Assembly (NCBI RefSeq): GCF_018350175.1
Contig: NC_058368.1
Coordinates: 103,542,001-103,606,000 of the forward strand
Source: Felis catus
Taxonomy: Eukaryota
Reading direction: 5' to 3'
DNA: 64,000 nt
Shown here: in pieces, positions 4,931-55,200 of the stretch
How the letters are laid out: each line of letters opens with the position of its first letter
How positions within the stretch are numbered: the stretch's first letter is position 1
The notes under the pieces: model-generated
Databases searched by the model: none
Told to the model about the DNA's origin: nothing
The model's input: only the letters and a program-made list of their open reading frames with translations
Made by a program: the position numbers and the translations under genes

Positions 4931-5266
4931 TATGGAAGAGTAGCATAACATGCCGCCACAACATATGCCACTCTGGCATATTGATTATTTTCAGCTGTAG
5001 ACACTTGAAAAACAGCAAACACAGGGGCAGGCTTTCTCTGAACTCCCCTCATCTACCCAAACACCAAGATCTTCCAGAAGGAACTCAACTGTCTTAATCC
5101 TTCCCCAGGACAGTCTTCAAGCAAGATTGATTCTTAATCATAAGAGCAAAGACTAGAAGTCAACATACTTTATCAAAGACTTTCATATATCCATCTACTC
5201 TCTAAGGACCAGATACTTTATCACAAACTTTCATATATATGGGGTGTGTGTGTGTGTGTGTGTGTG

Positions 5267-5306
<40 letters not shown>

Positions 5307-5817
5307 TATATATACACATATATACACATACATATATATATACATATACACATATACACATATATAGATATACACACACATATATATGTATATATATACA
5401 CATATATATGTATATATATATATACATACATATATATACATATATATGTATGTATATATATATATATATATATACATACATACACACCATATATCCAGAT
5501 ACTTTATCACAAAGTTTCATATATCCATCTATTATTCTCTAAGGACCTGTTCACCTTTCCTAAAAATCATTTACTCTCCCCTGACAGGCCCACATCCTCC
5601 CTCCCCTTTTCCTGTTAAGGTGGTATATAAGCCTGAATTCTAAAGCCATTTCTCTGAGTTACTCATTTTCCCCTTGGTATCTCTGTTGCGTCCAGGAAGT
5701 ACATATGCTACTAAAGTTCCATTTGTGTTTCTCTTGTGAATCTGTGTTTTACCATGGGAGGTCTCAGCTAAGAATTCATAAGGGTAGAGGAAATAATTAC
5801 TTTTCCACCCCTGCAAC
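4931..5817 (+). mobile_element. MER34-like ERV1 solo LTR
   Basis: 5' atatgccactctggcatattgattattttcagctg, TATA-like tatataag at ~5624, 3' end ...ttccacccctgcaaca. Confidence 0.7.
5233..5495. repeat. Compound (TG)n(CA)n(TA/CA)n microsatellite
   Basis: Directly visible; source of the spurious ORFs at 5202-5643. Confidence 0.98.
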
Positions 5818-40695: not shown

Positions 40696-42534
40696 AAAGC
40701 TGAATGGCCTTTTAAAAGTATCTACTATGTACCAAATACTTAAGGTGTTTTATTATCACAAAATCATGCCATTTTTATGGAATTATAATTCCCATTTTAT
40801 AAAGAAATTAAGATGGAAGGAAATTAGGTAAATTTCTTAAAATTCAGTTGGTAATCGCAGAGCTTAATTTTAATCCCATTCCCCTTCTGAATTCAGACAT
40901 ATCTACTGTACCGCACAGCCTAACGGTAAGCACTTCTGATGGATAGATAGCTTCAGATAATCTTCATAAACCCTGCAGTTAAAATTCTTTGAACTCTAGT
41001 ATGTTTCTCTGCCTCTTCTATGTGCTGCAACACACATTCAGGAAACAAGCAATTCCTGTCGGATGTACTGCATTCATATTATTTGTTTCAATTTCCTTGT
41101 CACAAAACTGTCTGGAATTACAATTATATATCATTATCCTTAAAGACATCTCATCTCCATAAATCTTGGGCCTGAATTATTGGGGTACAACCAATCTGCA
41201 GATGTCACCTTCCATACATATAAAATTAATGTTTTCCTCAATTACTTAGTCATTGAAACTGAGCAGAATACCATTTTCTAGTAGCTGGGGCAAGAACACA
41301 TGACGAAGAGAAAAGCATAAGCAAGGCATATAATAACAGATCGGACCTAAGCTGTTGGAGGGCCAACATGTTTAACGCTCGGAGGCAGAACCCAAGGTCC
41401 AAAGAGGTTAAATAACTGGAACAATACTAAGCAGCTTGCTATGGCATCGCCAGTGGCATGATAATCACTTTATAACATACACACCACTTATGAGTTACTG
41501 TTTCTCTGATGATTGGCTCATAAATAATAAACCGTAATGTTTCATCCTACGAGTTTTATGATTTCTCCGTTCCTGACTTTGCCTAATTCTTTTTCCTTAC
41601 TTCCAATGCCCATATTCCCATTAACTGCTGAGTTCTGTAATCCTCTTCCTTTCACTACAATTTTCATTAGTTACACTAATTGGACAATAAACTACTACCC
41701 CACAAGGGGCAAATTCTTTCTCATTTCAGTAGCTATGAAAATGAAAACCCCAGGTAAATTTAATTGGGTTTTTATGGTAACAGTTGGGAAGTCGGATTTT
41801 CATAGTCCAGAAATCTTAAGAACACTCATATTTGGTGGTCTCAAATTTACCCTAGCATTTGTGCATGAATTCAACAAAAGGTTTACTGAGCAACCACCGC
41901 CCTGCAAGAATTTACTCATAGAAGATGATTCATTTATATTCCTTGCCCACAATGAGGTCACTCACAGGTGAGTGAAGTAAACATACACAAAGAAGTAAAC
42001 GGACACAAGAATGGCTATTAAAATATTACATAATAATATATGTGGTAAGAACTTCTGGGAAAAATATAGCCCAAATGAGGTGCAGAATTCCTTTTTTTTT
42101 TTTCTTTGATGTTTGGACATAGGTATACACCAGGAAACGACCACCATTACCAAGCTAATTTTGAAGAGACCGTCCTTTCCCCATTGTACGTTCTTGGCAC
42201 TGATGTCAAAGATCAAGTGACTATAAATATGTAGATTTATTTCTGGGCCCTCTATTCTGTTCCACTGGCTTATGTGTCTGTTCTTACGCCAGGGCCATTC
42301 CGTTTTGGTTACTAAAGCTGTGCAGTACTGTTTGAAACCAGAAAGCATGACACCCCAGCTTTGTTCTTCTTGATCAAGATTACTTTGACCATTTGGAGTC
42401 TTTTGTGGTTCCACTTGAATTTTAAGATTATTTTCTTCTACTTCTATAAAGAATGCCTTTGGAATTTTGATAGAGGTTGCAATGAATCTGCAGATCACTT
42501 TGGGTAGCATGGACACTTTAAGAATATTAATCCC

Positions 42535-48130: not shown

Positions 48131-51100
48131 TAGAAATTATTATCATAAAAGATCTAGCTTTAGACAGGCAAGAAACTAATATGTTGTAAAAGCACATTAA
48201 TACAAAAAATTATAATAATACAAAAAGACTAAAGTTCTAAATCCCCAGGTTTAATTAACCCAACATTTCGAAGAAGACAGGCTTGCTACAGCATGGTTAG
48301 GAGCAAATCTGCTCTATAAATCCCATTGTCTGCTTATAAGTTTGCCTATTCAATTTGGCATTGCACTTTTATAATCATACAATACATATCAAAGGCCTGT
48401 GTTAGCTAAGAGGTCACAGAGCGCACATTCAACAGAAAGACAAAAGTACAGAATGAACTGACCATGAAAAAGAAAATAATTTTTTGACCAGAGAAACAAT
48501 AATATTTGCCCTTTATCTGGAAATGATTTCATGTCCAGAGGGTCTTTTTCCAAAAATAAAGTGCAGGTGGATTTTATGTTTCCTTTTATGGTCATTATAT
48601 ACCAGTAAACAAATAAGCCAAAGAAGTAATGGGAGAGTGGAGGTTGGGAGGGCGGGCACCTAAAACAAAAACAAAACAAGAGCAAAACAACTGTGATTTT
48701 CCTTTTTAAGGGGCCAAAAAAAACATTCACTGTTTGCCCAGAGAGAATCCTCCTGACTTCCAGATCAAAGGCATTAAGAGTACTTCAGCTAGCAATCTTG
48801 TCCAATTTTAAAACTATCTTATCAAATGGTATCTGCTATTAACTACCAATATAAACACAGCATGAAAATGAAGGTCAAATGCTGTAGTTTGAATGTTAAA
48901 TAAGGCTCAGAATATAAGTAGCTTTTAACAGGGCAAATTTTGCTTATTTTAAAGAAATTCACTCTAAAAATGTACTCCTAAACCACACGGCAGGCTACAT
49001 ATTCTTTCCCAGGGTCCAGTAAGAATGATTTTCCGGTCTTCATTGGGTTTCTTTTCTTCTCGTTGACAATGTCATGGGGTTCAGGACACTGCACTCTGTC
49101 TTTATAAAGTCAATCCTGCAATGAATACCTTCTCAGCTTTATCCTCAAAACTCCAGCAATGAATTTTCCAAAAGAGGGTGAACCTTTTACTAATGATAAA
49201 ATTTTCTAGTGGTGGTATTACAGACGCACAATCAAAGAAGGAACCTAGGGTTTTCCTGTTAAAATTGCCCATTCCAGAAAACTGCACCTGTGAGGCCTAA
49301 GAACGTCATTTGTGAATGTCATTAACACTAGGGTGTTCCGGGCTCTACTATAGTTTTATCTCCTTGGTTAGCTTTATTATGATTACTAGAAAGACTGCTG
49401 ACCCCAGTCCCCAAATACTTCTCCTCATCAACCATTTGGTATTTATAATTCTATCATTAACGATAATAATGTCTCTGTGTATTGTGGTTGTTTCTGATTA
49501 GAAGGCAACTGGGAAAGAATGGCAAGTCAGTCACTGTTTGCTGTTAACAGCTATTTGTGAACTCATGTATCACATTAGGGAGTAACACCTCACACAGCTT
49601 AAGACATCTCAGTTTTGATGGAAGAAGCAGATAGGCTGGGATCTGGAGGAGACTGGTTCAAGAGGACATAGTTGTGAGGTCTGAGTGATGAAACAACTTT
49701 CGACAATCAGATATAAGTGCTCTACTGGACAAGAAGATACAAACTGCAAAAGGAAGCCACAAAAAATACTAGCTCATTGCTGCTTTCCAGACTATCCCTA
49801 AATCTAAGTGTCCCCACCACCTGTGTCTGATAGAAGCCAATTCCTCAAAGTTCAAGTATCCACGTATACTGACTCTGAAAGAGGTCTTAGCAACTGTGAC
49901 CAAACACTTCCCCCTCCGGGAAGTTGTAAAAACACTGTCTTCGAGAATGTTGAGAAGGAGCAGTTCCATAGATGAGCCAAGTTCATACAAAGGATAAACA
50001 GCAAGCCCAGGACCCAGGCTTCCAAAGTCTGAGGTCAGTGTCCTTCTCAGAAACCACACTGCCCTTCTGGGTTTGAAGACTCATCCCAACCTCGTTTCCC
50101 CACAAATCCTGCCTTACATGGAAAAGGGAAAAAGAGAAATCTGCTAAATGACTTCTAACATGCAGGACGATATCTATGTGAAGTCCGACTTAACAGAAAT
50201 TACAGTCTCTCCACCTATTTCTAAATATCAGGGTGTGCTTTAGATTTACAATACTGAAAGGAAAATAGTTGTAATAAGCTTGGTGATTCCTAATGCCACC
50301 TGCCTCATAAATCAGTATAATAAGGGGAACCTGGGTTAAACCATCATTGTAAGGAGCCAACGTGTTCTAACAGCTTCATTCCTTTGCAGTGTATTTACTA
50401 CTCTTTCAAAAAAAAGTCACAGCCTTGGTGAAAAATAGAATTATACAGCCAGAAGAAACCACAATAAGGCCCTTAATTTACCCCCCACACTCCAATGGAC
50501 TTCATCTTAGATGGATTATCTACTGCCTATCATCTATGTCCTTTTTTAAAAAGAAAAAAAAAATAACCTCATAAAATGGGCTCAAAAAAGTTCTTTTATA
50601 TGACAGCACTTTAAAAAGCACTAAGGCATTGTACAGATGTAAGGGATTATCGTTCTTTATGTTAAGGATAAAGAGAGTTCAAAATCTCTATCAGGAAAAA
50701 GACTACAATGTTTCTTTCACATTTTTTTCAAGCAGTTCTTTCTCATGTCCACCCTAAATCTCTCCTTATTCTAGTTACTCCCTTCTTCCCTCCTCTGCTT
50801 ATATAAATAGAAACAGAAAATAGAAACACAGGAGCTTAGGTTTGAAAAATACATCTCCTGGCTTATCCTTCGGATTTCACTAATGAAGAGGCTATGAATC
50901 TTGCCTATAAGGGCTGGACAGTAACGTAAATAAGGAAGTCAGGTGAGTAAGAAAACTTTCTTGGATCTCAAAAAACAAACAAACAATGGGCTGCATGATA
51001 AACAGCAGCTAATGCTCGGGCTGAGTGGAAGAGGCGGCGGAGAGCGTGGAGGCCAGGATAGCGCCAGCCCAACAAGGGTAGCAGGTGCCCAAATGAAACC

Positions 51101-51334
51101 ACGGAGAAACGCAAGCGCACTGCCAGCTGATTTCTCAAACTGGCATGCAAATCTTTACAGGAAACTCTCCTGGGTTTAAAACTGTATTGATCTTTTTTTA
51201 AACGGAAAAATACATAACACATATAAATACATAAATAAAACACCTACAAGCCTATTCCAGGCTTCACCCCGCTGGTTCACGACCTCTCGTCTCAGTGACA
51301 TGATCTGGAATCCTCGCTCTGGTGCGAGTTCTGT

Positions 51335-52283
51335 CTGGTTAAGAGCCTACGGGAGAACAGCCTCAGGGGTCATTCCTATTACCTATTCAGTGGCCTGAGC
51401 AGTGGGCGCTCCAGTCCGGTCCTCAGTGGCGGCCGAGGGCTCCAGTCTTCTGGAGGGAACTGCTGAGTAGGTGCAGGGGGTGGGCACTCCATGCCTTTAG
51501 ACCAGCCTGCCACCTCGGGTTGAGGAGCAGTAAATTTACGAGCTGAAGCAGTCCATCCACCCCGAAGCTCCCCCGCGTCACAGCCTTTGCAGCAGTAACC
51601 TGCTCTGCCTTCTCCAACTCTTCAGAATCTCCAGACAGAGACAGAGAGAGAGAGATCAGGTGTGACGTCTCTGCGTGCTTCCGGAACAGCGCCGCGCATG
51701 CGCGGAACTTCCGCCACACCTCGCGGCGGACCTGCTGAATGAACTCTCTTGTTGCTGCAGGGTATGGCGGCGTCCATACGGCAAAGAGGGGAGTTTGTGC
51801 TCCACAGAACAATGGTAGGCGGATTAATGGAAGGCACCTTTTTGTGGTTAGCCCTGGGATCAGTAACCATAGAAAGTCGTGGCTCCTGAAGGTTCTGGAG
51901 TGAAGCGGCTAGCAGTAGAAATGGCTCTCGTGGCAGCAGCAAACTTCAGCAGAGACCAATGACCAGTGTTTCTAGAGGATGTGATACCGCCTTCAGCCGG
52001 ATTTTCAATGGAAACAATGCTACAACTCACCAAAATGAGCTCCTCCCAGGTCTTCTGAAGACAGGATATAGATGCCTTCACTTTTCCTTATATATATCAA
52101 CTGTCCGTTTGGAAGTCAACATTGGTGCCACCCAAGTGGGTTTCTGCTGCTCAGTGTTGAAGCACATCTTCCTCCTTCATCTGCAGGCCATCAAGGGCTC
52201 TGGGCATCAAAAGTTTCCCTTTAAGTCACAATGGGAATCCAGGACAGTACTATTTGGACCCCTCTCTGGGTAGCGCAGAAAGG
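51335..52283 (-). pseudogene. RPSA: Processed (intronless) pseudogene of ribosomal protein SA / 37-kDa laminin receptor precursor
   Basis: The minus strand carries an RPSA-like 5'UTR (CTTTCTGCGCTACC...GGATTCCC...CTTAAAGGGAAACTTT) and an ATG at 52207. It translates MPRALDGLQMKEEDVL, KTWEEL..SIENPAE..SSRNTG..LKFAAAT..RFTP, EPRL..VTDPRANH, IPCSNK and [14 protein letters not shown], all matching RPSA. There is a TGA at codon 19, several frameshifts and deletions, no introns, and a partial 3'UTR (GCTGTTCTCCCGTAGGCTCTTAA). No poly(A) or TSD is evident. Confidence 0.96.
51660..51782. promoter_or_regulatory. CpG-dense motif cluster inside the RPSA retrocopy (putative promoter/enhancer)
   Basis: About 15 CpG in ~120 bp; TGACGTC (51663-51669), CTTCCGG (51678-51684), palindrome CCGCGCATGCGCGG with NRF1 core (51692-51705), ACTTCCG ETS core (51707-51713). 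Confidence 0.5.
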
Positions 52284-55200
52284 CGGCCACCTTGTGAAAT
52301 ACACTCTGTCCTCAGTCTTCACAACATGACCAATCTGCACATACATTTGGACATTTGTATTTGTACTAGAGACATGTGACTGTGATGTTTCCATTCACCC
52401 TCGTGCTCCTCTAAACTTTCAGGAGAGGTGAAGGTGGGACGTTTCTCTTTGGAGGTCTGGGATTGAGGATACAGATTGAGACAACACAACAGCAGGAAAC
52501 ACACTCAAGAGGAAATGGTGTCTGTGATGCTGATTTCTTTAAGACTACAAACATCAGAAACATCTAAGATTTTTCACATACGTGGGTCAGCTTTCAAATC
52601 ACCTGTCAGATCTCTCTTTGCTAGGCAGAATACACCAATTAGGCTCCCTTTCCTTATTTGTTTCTGTTCTTCCACCTTTATGTGGTTTGGCTTATTCTCT
52701 TGTGAGTCCTTTCAAGCTTGTTAAATTTGTCAAAACCCATACTTGACAAAATACTGGACTGCTGCTAACTCCACAGAATGACTACCAAGCCTCTCTTCCT
52801 CCTGGAAGGAAATGATATGCTTCCTTAAATAAAATATTGATTAAAAAAAAAAAGCAAACATTAACAGTACACTGTTAGACCTGGCACCAGATTAGGATAG
52901 AATTTGGTCTATTAGATGGGCTTTGATGCTTTGTTCCCTACTGCAAATATGCTTCCACTCCCACAAAACAGAAACTGGGGTAAACGCACTATCTGCATAG
53001 AAATAAAAACAATGCTCTAATATTAAAGGGAAAACACAATGATAGAAAGAGTCAGGAAGCAGCTCAGCAAAGCCATTACCATGCTTATTGCCATTTGAAG
53101 GCACAATGATTGAAGTTATTGTCTTAATGTAAGATTACTAAATAATGCATCCCATAAAGGAAAGACATTGTATTGGCCATAAAACGTGTGTAACTGCAAC
53201 AGAATTCATACTTATTTAATGACACTTTAGAATCGGATGGTAATTAAAATGAAGTAGGAATTTTTAAAAGGCAAGAGAAATTCAAACACACCAGTATATA
53301 AATTGAAACATTCCCTTTGTTTTGCAAGCACATAAAGAAGTAAGTTTCACATGGATTTTTTTTTTCCTTTTTGGCCCACTGGGAACAACACAATTTTGAC
53401 TCTTCAGTATTTCCACTTCTAATTGCTAGGAGGGTTCATTATCAGCTGTCTAAAGTGCAATACATCAACCTTGCAAAGCTGAGTTACAAAAGACGTTCAC
53501 ACATCTGATGGGCTGCTGTGCTAAATACATCTTAATTTGTGCTGCATCTGCTGTTTTCTAATTTGTTTGTCACGCTGTGAATGCTGCAGACTTTGTTAGA
53601 GCAGCTCCCTGATTTTTTTTTCTTTAAAAATGCATCAACTCTTCATAAAAAAAAAAAAAAATGGCCACCTTCCACCATTGTTCATCTGTGTCTTGGAATG
53701 CCATAAACTCAATTCCGTTATATATGTATGAAAAAAATTCTGTGCATTTGAATATGTATATGTATTATATTAGAATAAATGCATATATTTTTGCATGTGG
53801 ATCAAGCAAAACATTCAGTTTAATCACATGAAGCAAAACAAACTTTCTGCAGCCAGCACTGAATGCACAAGGTGACACACACTCCATTCTCCCAATGCTG
53901 GCAATGGGTAAATGTTTCCCTGCTATGCAGACGATGTGCATTAGGGGGGCGCTCTCACTTCCTACCTGCTAAGCAGCAGGTCAAGTGGTAAACAAGCATG
54001 TGCAGTTCGACATGATCCAGAATGAATTAGTCGCGCATTAGGGAAGTTTAAATTCCAGCTGGGGAGGAAAACAAATACCACCACCTCAGTCTTTTCACAA
54101 AACACGGTGTCCAAGTTAAAGACAGGGCCTACTTCCTGGCACGTGACTCTGCTGTCGCCCAAAGCCTCATGCTTACAAGAGCTGGGATCGGTTTCATGCT
54201 CTGCTGTCACCACTTAGAAATTTTTCATACTTGATAAACAAGGGGCCCTGCATCTTCGTTGTGTACCGGACCCCACAAATCATGTAACTGGTCTTGGGTG
54301 CACAAGGCGTTTAGAGAGCGCTGGTGGAACAGCTAATGGATGAACTCCAGCATTTCAAGCTGTGAGATCACAAAAATGTACCCCTTGAAATGAAGAATAA
54401 AAGAAGGATAGAAGGAAGAAAGCAGAGAGAGAGGGAAGCACGAAGGGAGGGAAAACCAAACAGCATTTACTTTGTATTCATATAGTTTGATAGGCTGTGA
54501 GGGATGGAAAGCAGCCATTTCTACCTGATAGTTATTCTGAACACAGAGTTTGACTGCAACTCGTTAAAGGAATATGCCTCTTGTCACAGGTTTTGGGATC
54601 ACTAGCCAAAGTAGGGACTCAAAGTCAGTCTATAACTTTTTTTAGAAAAACAAGCGAAATACAATTCAATTTTTTTTGACAATTTCCCGCCACCGCTTTC
54701 CTTACATATCCACACACAAAATCCAAATTATTTTGGAAAAGTGAAATAAAAACCAGAAATACGGGGGAGCTGGAAACCTCAGAGGAACATGTGCAGTTCT
54801 TTCCGTCCTGCGTGCTGTTTATTTGGAGCAAGGCAGTGGACTGACGGGCAATGAGAGGCTGGCATCCTTTGTGTCTGTGCTTGGAGATGGCGATGCAGGG
54901 AAGCAGATCTGTGCCCTCGCTTCTCCCGCTGTACACCGCTCCCTCTCCGAGAGGGTGACAAGGACCCCATTTACATAATGCCAATCAGTCTACCGTGTCA
55001 AGTTTTCCCAAGAACACGCAGAAGCGATTACCAAGGCAGGCGTTATGACTGGTGGAGTCACAGACAAATCAGGGCTTCCATAAAGGAGTATGTTGAATCA
55101 ATAAGGCATACTGTTCAACCAGGGCTGAGAAAAACACCTCATAAAGTAACAGCATTTGTAAAGGTTAATCAATTCAGCTAATTGTAAATGCTCTCAATTG

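Follow-up and report, generated by a model that had tools for sequence, protein, structure and literature searches.

In a dead retrocopy of RPSA, found within the window (the whole 64-kb stretch of DNA analysed here), CpG dinucleotides have accumulated around a block of transcription factor motifs. We put about an even chance on the following account: the copy gained CpGs around NRF1 and ETS motifs that were likely latent in it, factor binding kept the spot free of methylation in the germ line, and the resulting island is part of a back-spliced exon. The features discussed are listed in Table 1.

Table 1. Features of the RPSA retrocopy and its surroundings, in window coordinates.
Feature	Positions	Strand	Basis or remark
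Collinear sequence beyond the donor in run X1, depth falling from 56 to 27	50000..51382	-	X1 contigs
Wider CpG-rich domain, GC 55%, CpG o/e 0.65	51000..51800		Composition scan
Processed RPSA pseudogene, approximately full length	51340..52283	-	PDB matches and codon alignment; 3' end approximate
Splice donor AG/GTAATA	51377..51382	-	Inside the retrocopy, in the parent's last W-V-G codons; compatible in P0001
Inferred 1419-nt back-spliced exon (most of the retrocopy and ~520 nt upstream)	51383..52801	-	X1 contig loop, length arithmetic, splice signals
(TC)n/(TG) microsatellite, grown next to the motif block	51636..51657		Shorter in P0001, P0002 and P0004
CpG core with 15 CpGs: 9 forced gains, 5 that the parent protein allows, 1 at a gap in the alignment	51660..51782		Count and codon test
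CRE-like site TGACGTC	51663..51669	+	Created by an E>D change in the parent frame; compatible in P0001, P0002 and P0004
ETS-type site CCGGAAGC	51677..51684	-	Arose at a small deletion in S-R-E codons
NRF1-type 14-bp palindrome	51692..51705		Core probably inherited, from L-R-M-R-G codons; outer CpG on the left gained
ETS-type site, CGGAAGT at 51707	51707..51714	-	GGAAGT fits the parent R-E-V codons; leading C at a deletion
Splice acceptor, pyrimidine tract and CAG/G	52802..52818	-	Outside the retrocopy

Two PDB matches (E 7.5e-29 and 2e-14) identify the retrocopy as RPSA. Its alignment with RPSA covers 296 codons, from the start codon at 52207 to 51350, and is continuous, without gaps of intron size. 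The frame is disabled by a premature stop and by deletions of 1, 2 and 25 nucleotides in the codon alignment. An earlier note on this DNA had described a dead RPSA retrocopy, and the PDB matches, the stop codon and the frameshifting gaps bear this out; as judged from these letters, the element is a dead processed pseudogene. Inspection of its ends revealed neither a poly(A) tail nor a convincing target-site duplication. The best candidate for the latter is a 10-nt match with one mismatch, and loss of such traces is expected with age. The 5' end was placed by a pyrimidine-rich start, which we take to be that of RPSA. Sequence searches with a 161-residue frame at the retrocopy gave zero matches, because this frame lies mostly off the RPSA frame.

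All 64 kb were read by eye, and only pieces of SINE, L1 and LTR-like elements were recognised; the SINEs are presumably of carnivore type. No coding exon was recognised in the 64 kb and there is no neighbouring gene in the window. A Pfam search with 26 long frames and an Rfam search of the window each returned no match, and a bacterial promoter scan, whose model is irrelevant to this DNA, was blank. In blocks of 8 kb, A is in excess over T in all eight, and C over G in seven, a strand skew that suggests a long minus-strand transcript across the window. On the plus strand, donor-like CAG/GTGAGT words occur at 50941 and at 41965–41975, with no exon linked to them. At 5244–5482, a TA-rich microsatellite that lies in an LTR-like element contains a 50-bp perfect (GT)n/(AC)n palindrome.

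The window as a whole is AT-rich (GC 37%) and has a CpG observed/expected ratio (o/e) of 0.26. About 15 CpGs in about 120 bp had been claimed for the retrocopy; the count agrees, at 15 in the 123 bp of the core, where GC is 64% and o/e is 1.18. Enrichment extends from ~51000 to ~51800, overshoots the 3' end of the retrocopy by ~340 bp and peaks at the motif block. CpG islands are defined here by a length of 500 bp, a GC content of at least 55% and an o/e of at least 0.65, thresholds that are reached by 500-bp segments at 22 start positions between 51279 and 51507. By these strict thresholds the region is a small, marginal CpG island. Young SINEs within the window have up to 13–16 CpGs per ~215 bp, so the density of the island is unusual for an old element and not in absolute terms. 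Outside the retrocopy, the patch at 51000–51150 is CpG-rich (8 CpGs, GC 58%), has a depth of 5 in run X13 and contains an octamer-like word, ATGCAAAT, at ~51146.

Each CpG was tested against all codons possible for the parent RPSA protein, which served as a stand-in for the parent mRNA. Residues present in two of 11 mammalian RPSA-like proteins were allowed, and so were those present in any one of three near-full-length proteins of this kind. The best of 80 loci for the RPSA mRNA (L001) looks fish-like and is useful for the protein only. Nine of the 15 core CpGs cannot be encoded by any choice of parent codons and were scored as forced gains, one of which (51674) hinges on the alignment near indels; on this test the CpGs are not all parental, which the earlier note had named as a condition that would refute its reading. 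The core thus holds nine forced gains and the remaining 702 bp hold eight (p = 3e-4, for a region chosen post hoc), with three in the 5' 425 bp and five in the 3' 277 bp. A/T-to-G/C changes at fixed codon positions amount to 12 of 31 in the core, compared with 13 of 106 in the 5' part (p = 0.0025); the 3' part has 11 of 43. The ratio of GC-ward to AT-ward changes is 11:1 in the 3' part and 13:17 in the 5' part, and five G>A changes within the core indicate some decay too.

Four motifs had been reported to be packed within ~50 bp, and all of them are in place, spanning 51 bp. The CRE-like site matches seven of the eight letters of a full CRE, which is absent. CCGGAAG lies at 51678 on the minus strand, and the exact ETS 8-mer is found in the window only at 51677; with one mismatch allowed, 37 ETS-like 8-mers are found window-wide against 29 expected. 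A single NRF1-type pattern is present in the window, against 0 expected (100 shuffles). When the 123 bp were subjected to 20,000 dinucleotide shuffles, the NRF1 core appeared in 1.1%, a palindrome of at least 14 bp in 1.2%, two CGGAAG words in 0.1% and a CRE half-site in 7.4%. The NRF1, ETS and CRE types appeared jointly in 0 of the 20,000, for motifs that were picked after the fact. A search of metagenome contigs for the pattern of the motif block gave 0 matches.

Two Arg codons of the parent stretch E-V-L-R-M-R-G carry the CpGs of the NRF1 core. In other mammalian RPSA copies Arg codons have changed in 12 of 21 cases, ten of them to His or Cys; this count comes from the seven of 11 copies that align, two of which are mustelid and probably non-independent, the other four lacking or misaligning the stretch. 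Such R>H and R>C decay indicates that the parent Arg codons were CGY. The NRF1 core and the GGAAGT core, which fit parent codons, were likely inherited from the parent coding sequence, and to that extent the earlier suggestion that CpGs and motifs had been gained does not hold. It does hold for the nine CpGs, for the CRE-like site, for a second ETS site and for the outer CpG that makes the palindrome perfect, all of which are, on the codon comparison, new in this copy.

Three gene calls (P0001, P0002 and P0004) have derived residues in common with this copy, and their orthology is based on these residues, not on flanks. Both CpGs of the NRF1 core are retained in the window copy and in all three. 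P0001 and P0002 differ from the window copy by 2–4%. P0004 is more distant, differing at 41 of 238 fixed sites (17%) outside the motif block and at two of 33 (6%) inside it (p = 0.07, not significant by itself), and the block is the least diverged part of the alignment. The CpG of the ETS-type site at 51677 is also retained in P0004, in which 12 of the 15 CpGs are compatible and the other three are in the parent's state. These three would have arisen later on the window's branch or, for two of them, have decayed back. Against P0004, 14 CpG half-sites are intact and two are changed, for which p ranges from 0.12 to <0.001 according to the CpG rate assumed (6- to 15-fold). Retention in the relatives moderately supports long-standing low methylation, and the combination of CpG gain with a motif block kept in a distant copy would fit germline hypomethylation.

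P0132/P0166, another RPSA copy among 24 peptides scored, has EVLRMRG intact and shows 11 GC-ward against two AT-ward changes, several of them at other sites than in the window copy; it is a separate insertion or a much deeper branch. It has C148W, N164S and I189V in common with this locus, and other derived residues in common with the sheep copy P0020. Among diverged copies that cover the core, drift is GC-ward in two of three that keep it and in none of five that have lost it (p = 0.11), in a search that favoured copies resembling the window copy. P0005 is a counter-example, with the core kept and AT-ward drift. P0015, a dog UniRef entry, is an RPSA model in which ~160 residues are repeated internally and the tail is frameshifted; it is probably a retrocopy or a model artefact.

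The GC-ward bias across the whole back half of the copy, and a CpG domain that overshoots it as a recombination hotspot would give, are also what would be expected if an unmethylated or hotspot site had undergone neutral GC-biased gene conversion that rewrote ~800 bp, the motifs being incidental and without effective binding. We regard this as unlikely, if well short of negligible. Many non-genic islands in dog are reported to have been made in this way (PMC4350167), and gene conversion is reported to overlap many orphan islands in cat (PMC11170920). Also in its favour, no transcription start site was seen in the four runs examined. Against it stand a CpG peak centred on the motif block, the low divergence of that same block in P0004, and three motif types that never came together in the shuffles.

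At least half of the words of 50700–52700 are found in 20 listed runs, of which 13 are guessed to be RNA and one is RNA on record. Four runs, one of them with raw reads, were examined over 50000–51850, the acceptor end lying outside this span. In the public run X1, record 4 (1448 nt, depth 131.5) starts with 51411–51382 and ends with 51850–51383, and a single 31-nt record at 51382–51412 has a depth of 185, close to 131.5 + 56.5. The ends of the record and the depth of the 31-nt node point to a loop in the assembly graph. The length of 1448 equals 1418 words plus 30, which gives a 1419-nt circle with one shared word, exactly from 52801 to 51383; closure at 52801 assumes collinearity of the 950 middle letters of the record. 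With 96% of the words up to 52700, X1 is consistent with the loop. Canonical minus-strand splice signals are present at both ends (Table 1). A single exon appears to be back-spliced into a circular RNA at ~5 times the depth of the flank, as inferred from this one run, whose identity as RNA is a guess. The CpG island appears to sit inside this minus-strand exon.

The junction list for the four runs reports no joint. A genomic tandem duplication is disfavoured as the cause of the loop, as plain AG and GT at random ends would have p~0.007 and the strong contexts p~4e-6. Poly(A) run X24 contributed two reads here out of 12.9 million read (2% of the run), with none on the island; both lie at 51240–51425 and are of minus sense if the library has the usual strandedness. 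Depth in X11 and X13 is patchy (2–5), X13 covering the flank as well as the exon, and a filter hides some records. Runs X6–X14 contain 0.64–0.73 of the words, where the exon by itself would give 0.65, a result not counted as evidence, since X13 covers the flank. Inverted pairs of SINE and L1 elements lie on either side of the exon, 14–19 kb apart and 73–84% complementary, at an ordinary density; flanking inverted repeats are common around circular exons and are not required.

Three further observations concern the flanks of the donor. X1 record 5 has a 26-nt loose end resembling a SINE tail, which joins exactly at donor 51383 with a depth of 2.1 and is absent from the window; it may represent a rare splice into a distant SINE. 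X1 record 1, a 2324-nt contig of depth 27, covers 50000–51206 and, if collinear, ends near 48880. An AATAAA word lies beyond the donor, at 49378 on the minus strand.

The length of the inferred circle is a multiple of three and its longest frame has 82 residues. A scan for repeated 7-mers found none beyond the microsatellite, and a microRNA sponge or a coding circle was rejected on the lack of such repeats and of a long frame. The abundance of the circle relative to its flank in X1, together with a donor that is compatible in P0001, might nevertheless reflect constraint on the RNA itself, with a functional circular exon in which RNA structure or protein binding would preserve the GC-rich block. 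This is very unlikely in our estimation: the retained motifs are sites of DNA-binding factors, the repeats, long frame and Rfam match that such a function might leave are lacking, and the circle comes from one run.

Another reading makes the circle a by-product of read-through from upstream. The locus would be an alternative promoter under selection, perhaps with imprinting of the RB1 kind; transcription would start near 51650, and a first exon ending at the donor would be spliced into a host gene. The CpG domain continues downstream on the minus strand, as it would over a first exon, and the skew suggests germline transcription across the window. Germline transcription is the setting of retrocopy imprints. 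We consider this promoter improbable, as no start pile-up over the island was seen in the four runs (contigs cannot show starts and the raw reads number two), the SINE-like end of record 5 is the sole candidate for a spliced partner exon and the 64 kb contain no recognised coding exon. X1 is collinear past the donor at a depth of 56 and then 27, and record 4 is unbroken at the acceptor, which could fit an internal start. The pattern would also fit nascent RNA, for which depth is low ahead of an acceptor and high beyond a donor, and a weak branch can be pruned during assembly.

The account that we favour, in which the motifs come first, would run as follows. A copy of the RPSA mRNA inserted, probably in the sense of a long transcript, for which the strand skew and the RNA contigs argue. 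The codons of E-V-L-R-M-R-G would have supplied GGAAGT and GCGCATGCG, with which they are compatible given CGY in the parent. Binding of factors at the NRF1 and ETS sites would then have led to local hypomethylation in the germ line. CpG gain and drift from A/T to G/C added the CRE-like site and the second ETS site; the gains are observed, and their cause would be the hypomethylation, with GC-biased gene conversion probably assisting the drift. The donor inside the copy and the acceptor upstream would define the 1419-nt exon that circularises. The island is predicted to have weak promoter or enhancer activity, perhaps directed towards the donor, and its working as a promoter is plausible. One report counts GABPA and NRF1 among the factors that open chromatin at CpG islands, and describes a limited effect of NRF1 degradation (10.64898/2026.05.04.722487).

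A broader version of this account is that the RPSA coding sequence hides a GABPA and NRF1 promoter seed, that dead copies repeatedly nucleate islands in CpG-poor coding DNA where the seed survives, and that here the island has become a start site within an exon whose circularisation the pseudogene itself assists. We hold this tentatively and think it rather doubtful as a whole. Repeated nucleation is suggested by RPSA being among the most retrocopied mammalian genes; it is reported to be in the top five parents (10.64898/2026.06.26.734816). The birth of orphan CpG islands and promoters is an open question. Dozens to hundreds of independent RPSA copies, whose ancestral state is given by a near-invariant parent, amount to a natural experiment with replicates. 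If retention of the 20-bp motif pair predicts CpG gain, island birth with the binding site first becomes directly testable. Most of the circular exon would come from a "dead" pseudogene, and with it an abundant non-polyadenylated RNA would be added that poly(A) annotation does not see. If the neutral explanation is right, this is an ordinary gene-conversion island.

Single-exon exonic circular RNAs arise by back-splicing. The inferred circle resembles them in its long exon, canonical splice sites, long flanking introns and near absence from a poly(A) library, and differs from them in that a processed pseudogene makes up most of the exon and itself provides the donor. A search of mainly open-access literature listed no paper in which RPSA copies seed islands, and none describing this circle.

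The earlier note had compared the island with the PPP1R26P1/CpG85 island in intron 2 of RB1, and the likeness is that of an island in a dead retrocopy that escapes decay, probably within a host transcript (PMC3839921, PMC4122923). The comparison fails on origin: the RB1 island probably came with a CpG-rich parent exon and was kept (PMC3839921), whereas nine of the 15 CpGs here are new. The RB1 island is also imprinted and a demonstrated promoter (PMC3839921, PMC4122923), whereas promoter activity is a prediction here.

Non-genic islands made by gene conversion, as described in PMC4350167 and PMC11170920, share with this locus the drift from A/T to G/C and the gain of CpGs away from known genes in a carnivore. 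Births of hypomethylated regions in sperm are a further comparable system (PMC5793779). As described, neither of these systems has a sequence seed, whereas the island described here centres on motifs derivable from parent codons.

Retrocopy promoters in CpG islands (PMC4772013) likewise tie a retrocopy to an orphan island with NRF1 motifs, theirs being NRF1/Sp1. As described there, those promoters adjoin and drive the copy, whereas this island lies in the middle of a dead coding sequence. A retrocopy serves as an exon in retrocopy-derived first exons such as that of CSMD3 (PMC7290577), and an RPSA copy is an exon of a spliced non-coding RNA in RPSAP52, antisense to HMGA2 (PMC6726650). The RPSAP52 RNA is linear and polyadenylated and is linked to the HMGA2 promoter (PMC6726650), whereas the exon here is internal and appears circular. 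Retrocopy-linked island promoters, retrocopy exons and a transcribed RPSA pseudogene are already known (PMC4772013, PMC7290577, PMC6726650); what would be new, on the codon evidence, is a retrocopy island that is mostly newly built and not inherited.
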